A stretch of 46,278 nt of DNA from Candidatus Nomurabacteria bacterium (GTDB lineage Bacteria > Patescibacteriota > Minisyncoccia > Phycocordibacterales > UBA9973), in contig JAHFNT010000005.1 of the NCBI GenBank assembly GCA_023267195.1, forward strand, positions 80,875 to 127,152. Direction: 5' to 3'. Positions 6,954 to 12,254 of the stretch are shown piece by piece. Position 1 is the first letter of the stretch. Every line of letters starts with the position of its first letter. The position numbers and the translations under genes were made by a program. Under the pieces are notes generated by a model. The model saw nothing but the letters and a program-made list of their open reading frames with translations. It did no database searches and was not told the DNA's origin.

Positions 6954-8117
6954 CTATGGCATCAGCTGTTTTAGGCTTGATTTTATTGTATTTTTAAGAT
7001 CTTTGAAAATATTTCCGAGTGGGCCTTCTCCATATCCCATATTATCCTTGCCTGCTGTTAGAAGTCCTAGGACAGTAAACCAAGAAGAGTCACGCAGCTT
7101 GGTTTTGTTGTTGCCAAAAATTTCAGTTGTTCCTAGGCTTGATGGGAGTTTTAGGATTGATTTTGAAAGTTCCACTAACATGGGAGTGTCTGCTCCGCCA
7201 CCTACAAACACGATGCCGGCAGGCAAGAGTTCTGATCTTTTTATTTTTTTTAAATTATTTTCTATTGACTCAAAAATATCACACAGGCGCGCCTCGATTA
7301 TTTCTTCCAGTTTTTTTCTTGAAAAATCTTCCGTAATATTTTCCAGTTTCAAATCTTCTGCTTTCTCTAATGGAATTTTAAAACCTAAAGCAATATCATT
7401 AGTGATGTCTGTTCCCCCGATAGAAAAAGTGTAAATAGATACTAGTGATCCATTTTCAAAAACAGAAATAGAAGTGGTCTCTGCTCCGATGTTGACCAGG
7501 GCTACCCCGACTATTTTTTGTCTTTCAGACAAAACAATATTACTGACGGCTATCGGGGAGGCTATTACATCTATCGTTTCTACTCCAGCTTCCGCGATTA
7601 CTCCGAGCAAATCTTCCAAATGGACAATAGAATAAGTTACAAAAAGGGTTTTTGCCTCAAGTTTGGTTCCACGCATACCCTCCAGGCGGCCTAGCACTTC
7701 TTTGCCGTCAAGCCGGAAAGAAATAGGGAACATGTGGATGATTTTTTTATTACCCAAACTCAAGTTTTCTTCGCAATCTGCCAAAGCTTTGTTTATATCG
7801 AGAGTCGTAACCTCGCCGTCTGCTTTAGAGACGATTGTTCCTCCGGGGCTGATCTCTCCGCGTAAAGTTGTGCCCGAAAGGGAAACGAAAGCGCGTTTTA
7901 TTTTTAGACCAGAAGTTTTTTCTGCTTGCGCGACTGCATTTCTGACTGAAGTGGCGGCCAATGTTTCATTGACAACATAACCGTGTCGAACTCCAAGCGT
8001 TTGGCTTTCGCCTACACCAATAATCTTAGGATTTTTTTCTCCTTTTAGAAATTCTCCGACCACGACTCGCGTCATGGACGATCCTACGTCTATCCCGACT
8101 GAAATATTTCTGATCAT
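6954..8117 (-). CDS. ftsA: Cell division protein FtsA (actin-like ATPase)
   Basis: N-terminal GIDVGSS phosphate-1 motif and GGGADT adenosine motif. Located immediately upstream of ftsZ. Confidence 0.9.
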   Translation of the reverse strand: MIRNISVGIDVGSSMTRVVVGEFLKGEKNPKIIGVGESQTLGVRHGYVVNETLAATSVRNAVAQAEKTSGLKIKRAFVSLSGTTLRGEISPGGTIVSKADGEVTTLDINKALADCEENLSLGNKKIIHMFPISFRLDGKEVLGRLEGMRGTKLEAKTLFVTYSIVHLEDLLGVIAEAGVETIDVIASPIAVSNIVLSERQKIVGVALVNIGAETTSISVFENGSLVSIYTFSIGGTDITNDIALGFKIPLEKAEDLKLENITEDFSRKKLEEIIEARLCDIFESIENNLKKIKRSELLPAGIVFVGGGADTPMLVELSKSILKLPSSLGTTEIFGNNKTKLRDSSWFTVLGLLTAGKDNMGYGEGPLGNIFKDLKNTIKSSLKQLMP

Positions 8118-8433
8118 ATTTTTTTTCCGCTTCTTCCATTGTACTACTATGATCGAGACCTTTCAAATGAAGCAGGCCGTGGATAACTAAAAAGCCGAGC
8201 AGTTCCGGGAAAGTTCTATTAAATTTTTTTAATTCTTTCTTGATTACTGCCTTACACAACACAAGCTCGCCGGAATTTTTTGATAAAGCAAAAGACAACA
8301 CATTTGTTGGTTTGTTTTTACCCCGCCATTTTTTATTTAATTCTTGGGATTTTTTGAGAGAGACGTAGGCAATAGAAAGCTCGTAGTTTTTGCCTAAGAT
8401 TTCATTCTTTATTCTAGAAAAAATCTTCTCCAT
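8026..8433 (-). CDS. ybeY: Endoribonuclease YbeY (rRNA maturation factor)
   Basis: HGLLHLKGLDH zinc-binding motif (H.x3.H.x5.H). The 3' end overlaps ftsA by 92 nt. Confidence 0.8.
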   Translation of the reverse strand: MEKIFSRIKNEILGKNYELSIAYVSLKKSQELNKKWRGKNKPTNVLSFALSKNSGELVLCKAVIKKELKKFNRTFPELLGFLVIHGLLHLKGLDHSSTMEEAEKKYDQKYFSRDRRRIVHDASRGRRISKRRKKS

Positions 8434-8435
8434 TT

Positions 8436-8669
8436 TTACTTAGTCACCATCTTGCCGAGTTTTTTGAGTTTTTCTATTTCTTGCCTGCGCGCCATTCGCT
8501 TGAGCGCACTCTTTTTTACTTTTAGTTTTGATTCTACTCGGACATTATAACGAGCGCCTTTGACTTTGCGAATAATTCCGGATTCTTGAATTCTGCGAGA
8601 AAAGCGGCGCAAGACACTCGCGTTGTTTTCGTTTGGATTTTTCTTAACTTCAATAACTGTTTTTGCCAT
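8436..8669 (-). CDS. rpsU: 30S ribosomal protein S21
   Basis: 77-aa basic protein. The segment LRRFSRRIQESGIIRKVKGARYNVRVESK fits the S21 pattern. Confidence 0.8.
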   Translation of the reverse strand: MAKTVIEVKKNPNENNASVLRRFSRRIQESGIIRKVKGARYNVRVESKLKVKKSALKRMARRQEIEKLKKLGKMVTK

Positions 8670-8751
8670 ACCTTGTAGACTAACATATAAAAGATTTTTT
8701 GCAAACCGACAACCGAAGGTAAGGAGGTACTGAGCGCAGTGAATGTATTTG

Positions 8752-8779
8752 TTGACAGAATAATAATTGTGTATAGAAT
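8752..8779 (+). promoter_or_regulatory. Sigma-70-like promoter: TTGACA (8752-8757), 16-nt spacer, TAGAAT (8774-8779)
   Basis: A perfect -35 and a 5/6 -10 at 16-nt spacing, directly upstream of the GC-rich unit. The predicted start is near 8786. Confidence 0.5.
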
Positions 8780-8799
8780 GTTTTTAGGAGGTTCTCGTT

Positions 8800-8994
8800 A
8801 TGAGTGAACAGCAGCATCCCGGACTGCGCCATTTGGCGCAGTGGAGTCCGGGGCAAAGCTTCGTTGCCCCGGAGAGCGAGGCGTTCAGGCAAGACAGCAC
8901 CGCTTCCCCGGGGGAAGGCAAGCTTCCCCCGGTGGCGCCCAAGGCGGAGGCGGCAAGCTGGAGTCCCAAACCCAACTACTCCGGCCAGGAGTAG
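8800..8994 (+). CDS. Candidate 64-aa Pro/Ser/Ala/Glu-rich small protein (coding status uncertain)
   Basis: AGGAGG at 8786-8791 lies 8 nt before the ATG at 8800. Third codon positions are mostly G/C in this frame. However, the product is low complexity and the region folds extensively. Confidence 0.3.
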   Translation: MSEQQHPGLRHLAQWSPGQSFVAPESEAFRQDSTASPGEGKLPPVAPKAEAASWSPKPNYSGQE

Positions 8995-9045
8995 CCACCC
9001 CGATCCCCGCGGGCTAGCCCAGAGGCTAAGCCCATCCCACGTTTC

Positions 9046-9086
9046 GGCCGTGGCCACCTCGCGGTGGTCCACGGCCAATTTTTATT
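9046..9086 (+). terminator. Rho-independent terminator
   Basis: GGCCGTGGCCACC-TCGC-GGTGG(T)CCACGGCC forms 13 bp with one bulge, followed by AATTTTTATT. Confidence 0.75.
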
Positions 9087-9189
9087 GACTTTTTTATAAA
9101 AAAATATAACATTGAAGAGTATAAGCCCCGTTAGAAATCTAATAGCGGGCTTTAGTCGTTTTATTATAGTATTTAAATTTGGCAATGGA

Positions 9190-9657
9190 ATGAATCAAGC
9201 AGGAAATTATATAACCGAAGAAAAAAGACAGGCTCTCTTGGCGGAATTGAAAGATCTAAAAGGCCCAAAAAGAAAAGAACTCTTGGAAGCTTTGGCGTAT
9301 GCGAAATCTTTGGGTGATCTGTCTGAAAATGCGGAGTATCATCAGGCGCGAGAAGAGCAGGGCAAGCTCGAAGCGCGGATCGCGAAAATTGAACAAATAT
9401 TGCAAGACTCAGAAACAGTAAAAGGCGGCGGGGGTGATATAATTGAAATAGGTTCCAAGGTAGTTGTGCAAAAAGATGGCACCAAAGAAACTAAAAATTA
9501 TGTTATAGTTGGATCTGAGGAGGCGAGCATGGCTGAAGGAAAAATCTCCAATAAATCTCCCTTTGGCAAGGCGCTTTTCAACAAGAAGAAAGGAGATGAG
9601 GTCTCTTTCAAAACTCCGGGTGGTGTAGTCAATTATAAAATCGTAAATGTTTCTTAA
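9190..9657 (+). CDS. greA: Transcription elongation factor GreA
   Basis: The track ORF starts at 9112. I use the ATG at 9190 (MNQAGNYITEEKRQALLAEL...). SLGDLSENAEYHQAREEQ is the GreA coiled-coil signature. Confidence 0.9.
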   Translation: MNQAGNYITEEKRQALLAELKDLKGPKRKELLEALAYAKSLGDLSENAEYHQAREEQGKLEARIAKIEQILQDSETVKGGGGDIIEIGSKVVVQKDGTKETKNYVIVGSEEASMAEGKISNKSPFGKALFNKKKGDEVSFKTPGGVVNYKIVNVS

Positions 9658-9695
9658 TTTCCGCCAAAGGCGGATCAGCCTCTGGCTGAAAAATT

Positions 9696-11156
9696 ATGTC
9701 TTCAATTGATGAAATTCGGGACACTAGAATAAAAAAACTAAAACTCTTACAAGACAGAGGCATGAATCCGTATCCAGCTGATTCAAAAAGAGAACTTACT
9801 TTGAAAGAGGCAGTTGATAATTTTGAAACCTTAGAAAAAAATAAAGAAAATAAATGGATTGCCGGCCGCATCATATCCATTCGCGGGCAAGGCGCTATCG
9901 TTTTTATTACTTTGAATGATGGTACTGGAACTTTTCAAGGATTACTGAAAAAAGATATTTTGGGAAACGAGAAATTTGATTTCTGGAGTGAAGTCGTAGA
10001 TATTGGAGATTTTGTCGAAGTGGAGGGTTCATTTTTTACGACCAATAGGGGAGAAAAAACACTGGAAGTCAGAGATTGGCGCATGCTCTCGAAGAGCTTG
10101 CGTCCTTTACCGGAAAAGTGGCATGGACTTGTAGACATTGAAGAAAGATTTCGCAAAAGATATCTGGATATTTTGATGAATCCGGAAATCAAAGAGCTTC
10201 TTTTGAAAAAATCAAAATTTTGGGAAACCACGCGCAATTTTATGAAGGAACATGGGTTTTTAGAAGTGGAAACTCCGACTTTGGAAGTCACGACTGGCGG
10301 AGCGGAAGCTACTCCGTTTAAGACTTATAATGAAGATTTTAAACTCCCGCTTTATTTGCGTATTTCGATCGGTGAGCTTTGGCAGAAAAGGTTGATGTCC
10401 GCAGGTTTTCCTAAAACTTTTGAGATAGGACGCGCTTATCGGAATGAAGGTTCTGACGCCAATCACTTGCAAGAATTTACAAATATGGAATTTTATTGGG
10501 CTTATGCAAATTACAAAGACGGCATGAAATTGGTAGAAGAGCTTTATAAAAAAATAGCGCAAGAAGTTTTCGGCACTTTGCAATTTGAAACACGTGGGCA
10601 TAAGTTTGATTTTGGTGGCAAATGGGAATGCATTGATTATCGCGAGACGGTCAAAAAGGAAACTGGTGTAGACATTTTGAATACGACTTACGAAGAAGTA
10701 AAAGATAAGTTGGAAGATTTAAAAGTTTCCTATGATGGTAATACTATGGAAAGACTAGTAGATACGCTTTGGAAATATTGTCGAAGAAAAATTTCTGGTC
10801 CGGTATTTTTGATTGGGCATCCAAAACTTGTTTCTCCACTATCAAAATCAATGCCGGAGAATCCTGAATTGACCGAAAGATTTCAGATTATCATTGCTGG
10901 TTCAGAAGTAGGCAACGGTTTTTCTGAATTAAATGATCCGATTGATCAAGCCGAAAGATTTGAAACCCAACAAGAATTAATCAAAGCAGGGGATAAAGAA
11001 GCAATGATGCCAGATTTAGAATTTGTGGAAATGTTGGAACATGGTATGCCACCTACTTGCGGTTTTGGCTTTGGAGAAATGCTCTTTGCTTTCTTGGCAG
11101 ATAAACCGATTCGCGAAACTCAAATGTTTCCTTTGATGCGACCGACTAAAGAGTAA
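9696..11156 (+). CDS. lysS: Lysine--tRNA ligase (class II)
   Basis: 486 aa. Has an OB-fold N-terminus, class II motifs (FLEVETP, YRNEG, GFGFGE...) and LysRS-typical length. Confidence 0.95.
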   Translation: MSSIDEIRDTRIKKLKLLQDRGMNPYPADSKRELTLKEAVDNFETLEKNKENKWIAGRIISIRGQGAIVFITLNDGTGTFQGLLKKDILGNEKFDFWSEVVDIGDFVEVEGSFFTTNRGEKTLEVRDWRMLSKSLRPLPEKWHGLVDIEERFRKRYLDILMNPEIKELLLKKSKFWETTRNFMKEHGFLEVETPTLEVTTGGAEATPFKTYNEDFKLPLYLRISIGELWQKRLMSAGFPKTFEIGRAYRNEGSDANHLQEFTNMEFYWAYANYKDGMKLVEELYKKIAQEVFGTLQFETRGHKFDFGGKWECIDYRETVKKETGVDILNTTYEEVKDKLEDLKVSYDGNTMERLVDTLWKYCRRKISGPVFLIGHPKLVSPLSKSMPENPELTERFQIIIAGSEVGNGFSELNDPIDQAERFETQQELIKAGDKEAMMPDLEFVEMLEHGMPPTCGFGFGEMLFAFLADKPIRETQMFPLMRPTKE

Positions 11157-11172
11157 AAAATTTTAGAAACGA

Positions 11173-11200
11173 CGATGCCCCGAGCGCGAGGCATCGGGGC
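11173..11200 (-). terminator. GC hairpin followed by a T-rich tract on the minus strand
   Basis: CGATGCC/GGCATCG or GCCCCGA/TCGGGGC alternative 7-bp stems. On the minus strand it is followed by CGTCGTTTCTAAAATTTTTT. Confidence 0.5.
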
Positions 11201-11226
11201 GGCTTGATGAAGAGCGTCAGGTTGGG

Positions 11227-11358
11227 TTATTGAACATTCTCCTCGTTTTCTTCTGTTCTGTCGGTGGTGATCATGAGGTAAACCTGCCACAGAGCATAGA
11301 CGGCGAGGGGGATGAAAGGAAGGAAAGCGATCGCAAGGACCACTGCGAATACTTTCAT
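11227..11358 (-). CDS. Candidate 43-aa single-TM peptide (below the ORF-track size cut-off)
   Basis: Hand translation MKVFAVVLAIAFLPFIPLAVYALWQVYLMITTDRTEENEENVQ, stop TAA at 11229-11227. AAGGAG lies 8 nt upstream of the ATG. Confidence 0.45.
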   Translation of the reverse strand: MKVFAVVLAIAFLPFIPLAVYALWQVYLMITTDRTEENEENVQ

Positions 11359-11550
11359 TGTTCAATCTCCTTCTTCAAACATTTAAACATTTACTAAATA
11401 TTTTGTCCAATTTTTGGTTTTTGAGTTTTCAATATATAAAAATTATACCCATAAAAAACAACAACCCCGAATGCGGAGCAGTCGAGGAGCTTTTTGCTTT
11501 TTTTATTGTGTTTGATTGTATTGTAAAGAAAGAACTTTGTTGGGGCGGCG

Positions 11551-11580
11551 CCCCCGCTCGGGCTTCCGCCCGAGCGGGGG
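11551..11580 (-). terminator. Perfect 13-bp GC hairpin downstream of the two-gene cassette
   Basis: CCCCCGCTCGGGC-TTCC-GCCCGAGCGGGGG. There is no immediate U-run on the minus strand, so it may act as a stabiliser or processing site rather than a classic terminator. Confidence 0.45.
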
Positions 11581-11596
11581 CAGATGGGGGTGAGAG

Positions 11597-11809
11597 CTAC
11601 TCGTCCACGAGAAGCTTCACGGCGAAGCGAGCCTTCTTCATCTTGCTGAAGTCTTCACCATTCCCGCCGTGGATGGTGAAGATGTTCCGGCCCGGAAGAA
11701 CGTAGTTGACATTCTTCCCGAGTAGTGAGGAGAGGGCACTGGCGATTTCTCTTGTGCTCATACTCCTCGGCCCGCTTAGGACCTGGATTGAGGGGTTGGT
11801 TTTTTTCAT
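11597..11809 (-). CDS. Hypothetical 70-aa protein (second gene of the GC-rich cassette)
   Basis: AGGAGA lies 4 nt before the ATG. The ORF has a sensible composition but I recognise no family. Confidence 0.5.
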   Translation of the reverse strand: MKKTNPSIQVLSGPRSMSTREIASALSSLLGKNVNYVLPGRNIFTIHGGNGEDFSKMKKARFAVKLLVDE

Positions 11810-11824
11810 GTTGTCTCCTATCTC

Positions 11825-12067
11825 TCACTTGGGCTTGAGGTAGTCGGAGTGGAGCATGAGAGGCGATTCACCACCGCTGTTGTTCAACACGGAGCCCCCT
11901 CTCTCCACGGTCAGTAGCCAGCATCCTTTGATTGGTTCTAGTGATCTGACGGAGCGTATGACGAACGGGTTTTCGCCATACAGTTTCGCAAGGCTCGCAA
12001 CCAAGCGTGACCACCGTTTCTTGTCCCACTCTACGACCTGACCCACCTGGGGTTCTGAAATGAACAT
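11825..12067 (-). CDS. Hypothetical 80-aa protein (first gene of the GC-rich cassette)
   Basis: AAGGAGGG lies 8 nt before the ATG, and the promoter boxes are upstream. I recognise no family. Confidence 0.5.
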   Translation of the reverse strand: MFISEPQVGQVVEWDKKRWSRLVASLAKLYGENPFVIRSVRSLEPIKGCWLLTVERGGSVLNNSGGESPLMLHSDYLKPK

Positions 12068-12094
12068 TCTCTTCGCCCTCCTTCTTCGGAAGAA

Positions 12095-12123
12095 TTATTA
12101 CCATGTTTAACCATTTTAGTCAA
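12095..12123 (-). promoter_or_regulatory. Sigma-70-like promoter for the cassette: TTGACT, 17-nt spacer, TAATAA (minus strand)
   Basis: The minus strand reads TTGACTaaaatggttaaacatggTAATAA. The -35 is at 12123-12118 and the -10 at 12100-12095. Confidence 0.5.
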
Positions 12124-12186
12124 TAAAACTTTATTTTTTAATAAAACGAAAGTTATCCACAGTCTGGGCTTGGCGTTATTTTATAA

Positions 12187-12231
12187 GTGGAATACAATAT
12201 ATATGAAGTGGGAAAAGGTGGGAAAAGTGTT
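12187..12231 (+). promoter_or_regulatory. Putative MraZ operator: GTGG(G/A)/GTGTT direct repeats on a roughly 10-nt register
   Basis: GTGGA at 12187, GTGGG at 12208, GTGGG at 12218 and GTGTT at 12227, just upstream of mraZ. Confidence 0.5.
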
Positions 12232-12254
12232 AATAATAATTTTTCAGAAATTTT

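Follow-up and report, generated by a model that had tools for sequence, protein, structure and literature searches.

A G+C-Rich Unit in the rpsU-greA Spacer of a Nomurabacteria Genome: Probable Small-Protein Gene and Allele of a Hypervariable Slot

Introduction

A short G+C-rich unit located between rpsU and greA in a Candidatus Nomurabacteria genome raises the question of whether it specifies an RNA, a protein, or no functional product at all. The unit occupies positions ~8752-9086 of a stretch of DNA of 46,278 nucleotides, the whole of which is referred to here as the window. The original prediction had described it as a stand-alone transcription unit for an unclassified structured RNA and/or a 64-codon gene led by a Shine-Dalgarno (SD) sequence.

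Several known systems resemble the unit in one respect or another. RNase P RNA, tmRNA, SRP RNA, and 6S RNA share with it a length of ~300 nt, a high G+C content within an A+T-rich genome, and the possession of their own promoter and terminator. Idiomorphic or allelic-replacement loci are known in bacteria, examples being comC and agrD, which encode pherotype peptides, and further small genes that vary between strains and lie between conserved flanks. Lastly, the leader of greA in E. coli gives rise to GraL, a set of short terminated transcripts that start at the greA promoters and end at a terminator within the leader (PMC2836576, PMC6829880).

In the present work, we have compared the locus with its counterparts in related genomes, using ybeY-rpsU / greA-lysS synteny and a scan of more than 160 greA loci (nhmmer and blastn), and have searched collections of known RNAs and proteins. 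Our analyses indicate that the unit is probably a monocistronic small-protein gene, which represents one of the alleles of a hypervariable slot for small ORFs that a subclade of the Paceibacteria (Patescibacteria/CPR) has in its rpsU-greA spacer.

Layout of the Unit

The unit lies in a neighborhood in which ftsA, ybeY, and rpsU are encoded on the minus strand and greA and lysS on the plus strand. All of the features on which the original prediction was based (viz. the promoter, the SD-led ORF, the hairpins, the terminator, and the greA box) were found in place; their coordinates are given here as window positions on the plus strand. The promoter, which had been described as near-consensus, is a sigma-70-type element (TTGACA-16-TAGAAT, 8752-8779) that matches 11 of the 12 consensus positions and is the best site within 8000-10000. 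An SD sequence, AGGAGG (8786-8791), precedes by the claimed 8 nt an ATG at 8800, which opens an ORF of 64 codons (MSEQQHPGLRHLAQWSPGQSF...PKPNYSGQE) extending to 8994. A transcription start ~7 nt after TAGAAT would put the SD at the extreme 5' end of the mRNA, an arrangement that is unusual but no disqualification.

The interior of the unit had been reported to be packed with helices, and five hairpins bear this out. Three of them are perfect, lie within the ORF, and were recovered both by folding and by an inverted-repeat search: an 8-bp hairpin at 8823-8842 (ACTGCGCC-ATTT-GGCGCAGT) and two 10-bp hairpins at 8847-8873 (TCCGGGGCAA / TTGCCCCGGA) and 8908-8932 (CCGGGGGAAG / CTTCCCCCGG), the latter two being 72% similar to each other. 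A 7-bp hairpin that is likewise perfect (CTACTCC-GGCCA-GGAGTAG, 8976-8994) includes the TAG stop codon, and another (GGGCTAGCC / GGCTAAGCCC, 9011-9033) is found in the 3'-UTR, both being evident from the sequence and the fold. The proposed alternative pairing of CCCGGACT (8818-8825) with AGTCCGGG (8845-8852) is also real.

The unit is closed by the expected intrinsic terminator (9046-9086), in which a 13-bp G+C stem (9046-9058 / 9063-9076) is followed by AATTTTTATT; a simple terminator scanner reports just the inner part of this stem. The -35 box that had been assigned to greA itself (TTGACT, 9085-9090) is present and belongs to a greA promoter recovered by a promoter scan (TTGACT-16-TAACAT, 9085-9112), which forms the right boundary of the slot and lies outside of the cassette. 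A search of the window for the same pattern of promoter, SD, and ATG revealed no further cassettes.

The left junction of the insert, as defined by comparison with relatives that have an empty site, spans 8707-8751, and is A+T-rich with short duplicates. Upstream of the cassette promoter (8722-8750 vs. 8776-8795), AGGAGGTACT at 8722 has a counterpart in AGGAGGTTCT of the SD region at 8786, GAATGTATTT/GAATGTTTTT form a second duplicate pair, and GCGCAGTG is present both at 8734 and at 8836. These short duplicates may have been left behind by a previous junction or a previous SD.

Base Composition, Folding, and Open Frames

The unit stands out in its base composition. The earlier count of 43 G or C among the 60 bases of 8881-8940 is correct, the region 8800-9078 is 67% G+C, and the 250-nt window at 8826-9075 (69.2% G+C) is the top one of the entire 46 kb (mean 0.39, sd 0.055), from which it is removed by more than 5 sd; the G+C content of the body is about 25 points over that of the genome. 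At least four frames are open across the unit, as had been observed previously, and shuffling of the body leaves 64 codons open in 26% of cases, so that the length of the ORF alone is little evidence for coding. GC1, GC2, and GC3 of the window ORF are 0.65, 0.55, and 0.77, in agreement with the G/C-dominated third positions noted earlier, and the order GC3 > GC1 > GC2 holds in the SD-defined frame of all of the G+C-rich alleles identified in this work, the window included. The GC3 of these alleles is 0.72-0.77 (0.77 in the window, 0.72-0.75 in the others), in loci and genomes of ~40% G+C.

The plus strand of the window cassette folds with an energy far below that of dinucleotide shuffles (z = -4.9), and the corresponding values for other alleles, designated here by their loci, are -3.9 (L171), -3.3 (L177), and -2.5 (L170). 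The opposite strand of the window cassette folds equally well (z = -5.2) and the plus-strand fold contains 1 G-U among its 93 pairs; hence, the stems have the character of DNA-level palindromes without a strand-specific RNA signature. The high G+C content and the perfect palindromes may be due to selection on mRNA structure or stability, or to recombination-associated G+C enrichment, for which G+C-biased repair at a recombination hotspot is a possible cause. Another possible source of the high G+C content is a pool of G+C-rich donors from which DNA was imported repeatedly.

Searches for Known RNAs and Proteins

Searches of the whole window against Rfam 15 at the gathering score detected just five tRNAs, all of them located elsewhere, and no match in the cassette. 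When the threshold was relaxed to E<=10 for the region 8650-9200, the best match was mir-H5 (23.6 bits against a threshold of 90 bits), which is noise, and the cassettes of the relatives also gave no Rfam match. The gathering threshold was not reached by the cassette for any of the Rfam families, including RNase P, tmRNA, SRP, 6S, raiA, HEARO, ROOL, and GOLLD. ARAGORN identified five tRNAs in the window and zero tmRNA, with none at the cassette. These results agree with the hand search behind the original prediction, in which no signatures of RNase P, tmRNA, or SRP were seen.

The product of the 64-codon ORF (MSEQQHPGLRHLAQWSPGQSFVAPESEAFRQDSTASPGEGKLPPVAPKAEAASWSPKPNYSGQE) contains 7 acidic and 5 basic residues together with 9 Pro, 9 Ser, and 8 Ala. 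AlphaFold modeled it without secondary structure (pLDDT 64, pTM 0.14), and it is accordingly predicted to be intrinsically disordered. In a comparison with 5.8 billion proteins the product matched itself alone, and an exhaustive phmmer search of 1.84 billion representative proteins similarly revealed no homologue other than itself. The four alleles looked up (viz. those of the window, L170, L171, and L168) are all singleton clusters, and searches of Pfam, PHROGs, PADLOC, NCBIfam, and PDB with all alleles gave nothing above noise. DNA and peptide BLAST searches of phage and plasmid collections yielded one 49-nt match to an Iamia plasmid (E = 6e-3), which we read as chance, while exact-pattern scans of viral contigs with two of the hairpins and the promoter of the relatives gave zero matches.

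An internal peptide repeat (AQWSPGQSF/ASWSPKPNY) was considered as evidence for coding and set aside, since it amounts to one exact 8-mer, about the chance expectation. One JGI record labels a 63-aa allele as a 'molybdopterin biosynthesis enzyme', an annotation for which this analysis gives no support. Gene callers are in conflict on identical DNA, a 125-aa minus-strand ORF being called in L001 (2613-2990) and a 64-aa plus-strand ORF in L002 (697-891).

The Locus in Related Genomes

The nearest public relatives of the window are Candidatus Paceibacteria, i.e., Nomurabacteria-type Patescibacteria. Two of the loci examined, from ENA ERZ27279977 (L001) and Logan SRR14366796 (L002), carry an rpsU-greA spacer that is base-for-base identical to that of the window, and they are the only ones among the more than 160 greA loci scanned in which the element itself was matched. 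The presence of the same sequence in three independent assemblies indicates that the cassette is real; the three copies, being identical, hold no evolutionary information on selection. No diverged copy of the window allele was found in any collection searched.

The slot is empty in L003, L083, L084, L166, L167, and L173-L175, where the spacers are 59-192 nt in length and 18-30% G+C. The GreA proteins of three of these relatives are 82% (L003), 75% (L083), and 71% (L084) identical to that of the window. In L083 and L166 the sequence shared with the window ends at 8706 (...AAAGATTTTTTGCAAA) and meets the greA promoter (ATTTTTATTGACTTTTT) almost directly, so that, compared with these loci, about 370 nt (about 8707-9075) are inserted in the window; in L003 the similarity to the window reaches about 8731. 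The greA promoter (ATTTTTATTGACTTTTT...AAAAAATATAATAT) is kept in all of the related loci, whether a cassette is present or not. In L173-L175 (1375-1455), which derive from Nomurabacteria of the GW2011_GWC2_41_8 type, the cassette-free spacer that separates rpsU from the greA promoter contains an inverted repeat (GCCCACACACTTATATTTT ... AAAATATAAGTGTGTGGGC) that is long and A+T-rich.

In the occupied sites, different small ORFs (32-79 codons) precede greA, with rpsU or the contig end on their other side. These ORFs consist of 79 codons in L168 (called as 68 aa), 63 codons in L169, L171, and L172, 62 codons in L170, 60 codons in L177 and L178, and 32 codons in L179-L181. All of the occupied sites are built alike. 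A promoter of the form TTGACA-17-TA[AG]A[AT]A leads to an SD and an ATG, and the greA promoter comes after a G+C hairpin that has a T-run. More specifically, TTGACA-17-TAATAA or TAGAAA precedes the small ORFs in L168-L172 and L177-L181, AGGAGG or AGGAG is located 6-8 nt 5' of the ATG in all five of the other alleles, and hairpin and T-run terminators occur at the equivalent place in L168-L172, L177-L181, and L163. The promoter of the window only loosely resembles those of the other cassettes, and the homology of the slot consequently rests on position and architecture. The bodies of the different alleles share no sequence and no common fold.

In three further relatives, whose GreA proteins are 85-86% identical to that of the window, the contigs stop 70-150 nt 5' of greA (L163:1-151, L164:1-71, L176:1-76), and these ends fall in G+C-rich or terminator-like sequence. 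The positions of the breaks suggest coexisting alleles or strains which differ at the slot. In L177 (1-110), the gene 5' of the cassette is not rpsU; a minus-strand ORF starts there with MPRIRREAVRLVKRGWSARKVG... and the contig ends within it. The start of this ORF resembles the helix-turn-helix N-terminus of some transposases.

Block Replacement and Selection in Sister Alleles

Two comparisons between sister alleles are particularly informative. L170 and L171 encode an identical GreA protein and their flanks are 98.9% identical upstream and 98.4% identical downstream, but the 225 nt between them, which begin a few bases past the SD and reach the terminator foot, are unalignable. The sole part common to the two small proteins is a C-terminal motif (EDYPINVSP vs. 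GDYPVTVSP). As read from these sequences, within what is effectively one species only the coding body has been exchanged and the expression signals have stayed.

L171 and L177, in contrast to the above pair, carry diverged versions of one allele. Of their 44 nucleotide differences, 24 are at third codon positions (pS 0.55, pN 0.14, dN/dS 0.16; Fisher p = 3e-7), and their sole indel, of 9 nt, is in frame. By this sequence comparison, purifying selection acts on the protein of the L171/L177 allele class, and the low dN/dS and the in-frame indel indicate that the slot encodes translated small proteins. The dN/dS value belongs to this pair of alleles. For the window allele, we infer a coding function by analogy, from its position, the shared architecture, its SD and ATG, and the G+C content of its codon positions. 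Of the alternatives offered by the original prediction, the SD-led 64-codon gene is thus the better reading insofar as SD, ATG, and ORF are kept in the sister alleles and one pair of them has a dN/dS of 0.16, with the coding status of the window's own allele resting on inference.

The same pair of alleles bears on the terminator, in which 3 of the 9 stem pairs have changed on both sides with the pairing kept. These compensatory changes, the only covariation seen in this work, indicate that the terminator is a selected structure and that the unit is independent of greA. The earlier claim of an independent unit, as opposed to a greA leader, also agrees with the recurrence of the layout of promoter, SD, ORF, and terminator and with the conservation of the greA promoter in all of the loci.

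L171 and L177 are near synonymous saturation (dS about 1), yet the G+C content of their synonymous sites stays high, which hints, in these two sequences, at an RNA- or DNA-level constraint beyond coding. In the main internal hairpin of the two alleles (alignment columns 86-123), all four of the synonymous changes are located in loops or bulges or give rise to G-U pairs, four sites being too few for a conclusion.

The greA Leader and a Second G+C-Rich Islet

A hairpin with a U-rich tail (AAGCCCCGUUAG...CUAAUAGCGGGCUU UAGUCGUUUUAUUAU) is present in the 5' leader of greA itself (9113-9189). Similar leader hairpins recur in L003 (2420-2500), L165 (1495-1569), L167 (630-706), and L177 (500-577), with fold z values of -3 to -4.3 in the relatives and -0.8 in the window; other relatives lack the hairpin, and in these the ATG follows ~10 nt after the -10 box. 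In L177, the 5' arm of the hairpin can alternatively pair with the sequence directly before the ATG. By analogy with GraL (PMC2836576), the hairpin looks like a leader terminator or attenuator, and the hairpin and U-run of the window (about 9123-9166) form a better GraL analogue than the cassette does. The cassette resembles GraL in specifying a small terminated transcript directly 5' of the greA coding region; unlike GraL, it is located upstream of the greA -35 box (9085-9090), ends before this box, and has its own promoter and an SD-led ORF. An identification of the cassette as a GraL-type leader transcript was rejected because the cassette precedes the greA promoter.

The lysS-mraZ spacer of the window (11157-12254) contains a second islet of raised G+C content (0.55-0.61 in 250-nt windows), which includes three small minus-strand ORFs (a hydrophobic one of 43 aa and others of 70 and 80 aa), none of which has a Pfam match, and G+C-rich hairpins at 11176-11202 and 11548-11581. 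In L003, different small ORFs (65 and 114 aa) are found in this spacer, because of which it looks like another strain-variable slot.

Discussion

The results presented here are best explained if the unit is a small-protein gene whose body is exchangeable. The sigma-70-type promoter, judged by its consensus, would drive the synthesis of an mRNA of about 300 nt, from which AGGAGG and the ATG would direct the translation of a 64-aa acidic, Pro/Ser/Ala-rich, disordered cytoplasmic protein. The G+C hairpin and T-run would stop the transcript just 5' of the separate greA promoter, as the sequence and the covariation of the hairpin in relatives suggest. The expression signals would constitute a stable frame, within which the body from the SD to the terminator is swapped as a block, presumably by homologous recombination via the conserved flanks. 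Exchange of the body as a block would account for the observation that related strains carry unrelated bodies or none.

Other explanations of the unit differ in how well they agree with these results. It is rather unlikely, in our assessment, that the body is functionless G+C-rich DNA, recently acquired or newly arisen between working signals, in which an ORF stays open because stop codons are few in G+C-rich sequence. Such an origin would be in accordance with the singleton status of the alleles and their lack of homologues or family matches, the large share of shuffles that remain open for 64 codons, the many relatives without the cassette, and the silence of the three identical copies on selection. 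However, none of the expression signals (promoter, SD, ATG, and terminator) is disrupted, purifying selection acts on the L171/L177 class, the codon-position G+C pattern fits the SD-defined frame, and the G+C content of the body exhibits no decay toward the genomic 39%.

We consider it unlikely as well that the transcript works as a small RNA through its structure, with the G+C hairpins as the functional part, whether it is non-coding or is also translated. The unclassified structured RNA of the original prediction is not supported, in that Rfam gave no match, ARAGORN detected no tmRNA, the body is absent or replaced in the closest relatives, and both strands fold equally. The strong folding of the window and of the three other alleles, the perfect 8-10-bp stems, the GC3 of 0.72-0.77 held in ~40% G+C genomes across a dS of about 1, and the structure-compatible synonymous changes in the L171/L177 hairpin are features expected of such an RNA. 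Set against them are zero Rfam matches at any threshold, bodies without a common sequence or fold, the equally good folding of the opposite strand, plus-strand stems that are nearly all Watson-Crick and hence fit DNA palindromes, and the occurrence of an SD and ATG in every allele along with a dN/dS of 0.16 in the sole testable pair. RNase P RNA, tmRNA, SRP RNA, and 6S RNA differ from the cassette, which has no covariance-model match at E<=10 and is not kept in relatives.

It is very improbable that the unit is a small mobile element of the non-autonomous kind (MITE- or REP-like) or belongs to a diversity-generating retroelement as its variable region. The unit is an insertion relative to other genomes and rich in palindromes, -35-like boxes are found at both of its ends (TTGACA at 8752 and TTGACT at 9085), and the contigs of three relatives break exactly at the slot; but it has no terminal inverted repeats, there is no second or template-like copy within the 46-kb window, and viral contigs, phages, and plasmids gave just the one 49-nt chance match. 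With regard to the retroelement, the alleles differ throughout, beyond adenine-templated sites, and L170 and L171 are unalignable over the whole body. It is exceedingly improbable that the real gene is the 132-codon minus-strand ORF (8680-9078), which is the longest across the region and was called, as 125 aa, in L001, given that it starts with TTG without an SD, crosses the terminator and promoter backward into the A+T-rich upstream region of rpsU, mirrors the codon-position G+C of the plus frame, has no counterpart kept in other alleles, and was passed over by another gene caller for the plus-strand 64-aa ORF in L002.

The small-protein slot favored here can be compared with known variable loci. 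It is similar to loci of the comC/agrD type in that unrelated or diverged small coding bodies occupy one position in near-identical strains, between conserved flanks and signals. It differs from them in that no processing, export, or sensor genes are located nearby (the neighbors being ybeY, rpsU, greA, and lysS), in that its products, for which disorder is predicted, have neither a signal nor a leader peptide, and in that its bodies are G+C-rich in an A+T-rich genome. With strain-specific orphan small ORFs of flexible islets the slot shares singleton proteins that are present or absent among close relatives, and the lysS-mraZ spacer offers a second islet of this kind; in contrast to such islets, variation in the slot is confined to the ORF body, and the promoter, SD, and terminator dedicated to it are retained, and unlike orphan ORFs, which are usually A+T-rich, its alleles have a GC3 of 0.72-0.77. 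An integron gene cassette was also considered and rejected: the neighbors are ybeY, rpsU, greA, and lysS, the 3' boundary is a hairpin and T-run terminator, no GTTRRRY core was found on direct reading, and the unit has its own promoter, unlike typical cassettes.

In view of the replacement of alleles at the strain level, a housekeeping role seems less likely than one under diversifying or frequency-dependent selection. A more far-reaching version, which we put forward tentatively and consider rather unlikely, is that the slot is a balanced polymorphism, in which unrelated G+C-rich micro-genes, each for a disordered acidic protein, form a population-wide pool that is recombined through a fixed frame of promoter, SD, and terminator and kept by frequency-dependent selection (e.g., because the products interact with phages or with the cells that host the episymbiont), the hairpins and the synonymous G+C being kept for a role at the RNA level.

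If the reading of the unit as a small-protein gene in a variable slot holds, it would represent no new class of RNA, but a case of strain-level replacement of gene bodies in a core-gene neighborhood of a streamlined CPR genome, in which the expression signals are conserved and a body of 32-79 codons is swapped. It would also advise caution in the discovery of RNA genes via G+C islands in A+T-rich genomes, where a promoter, a terminator, and strong folding may still denote a small coding gene. Such slots would easily be missed, since gene callers assign the gene to different strands (L001 vs. L002) and contigs end at the site (L163, L164, and L176). In organisms whose interactions with phages and hosts are almost unknown, such slots could mark genes that are under diversifying selection.
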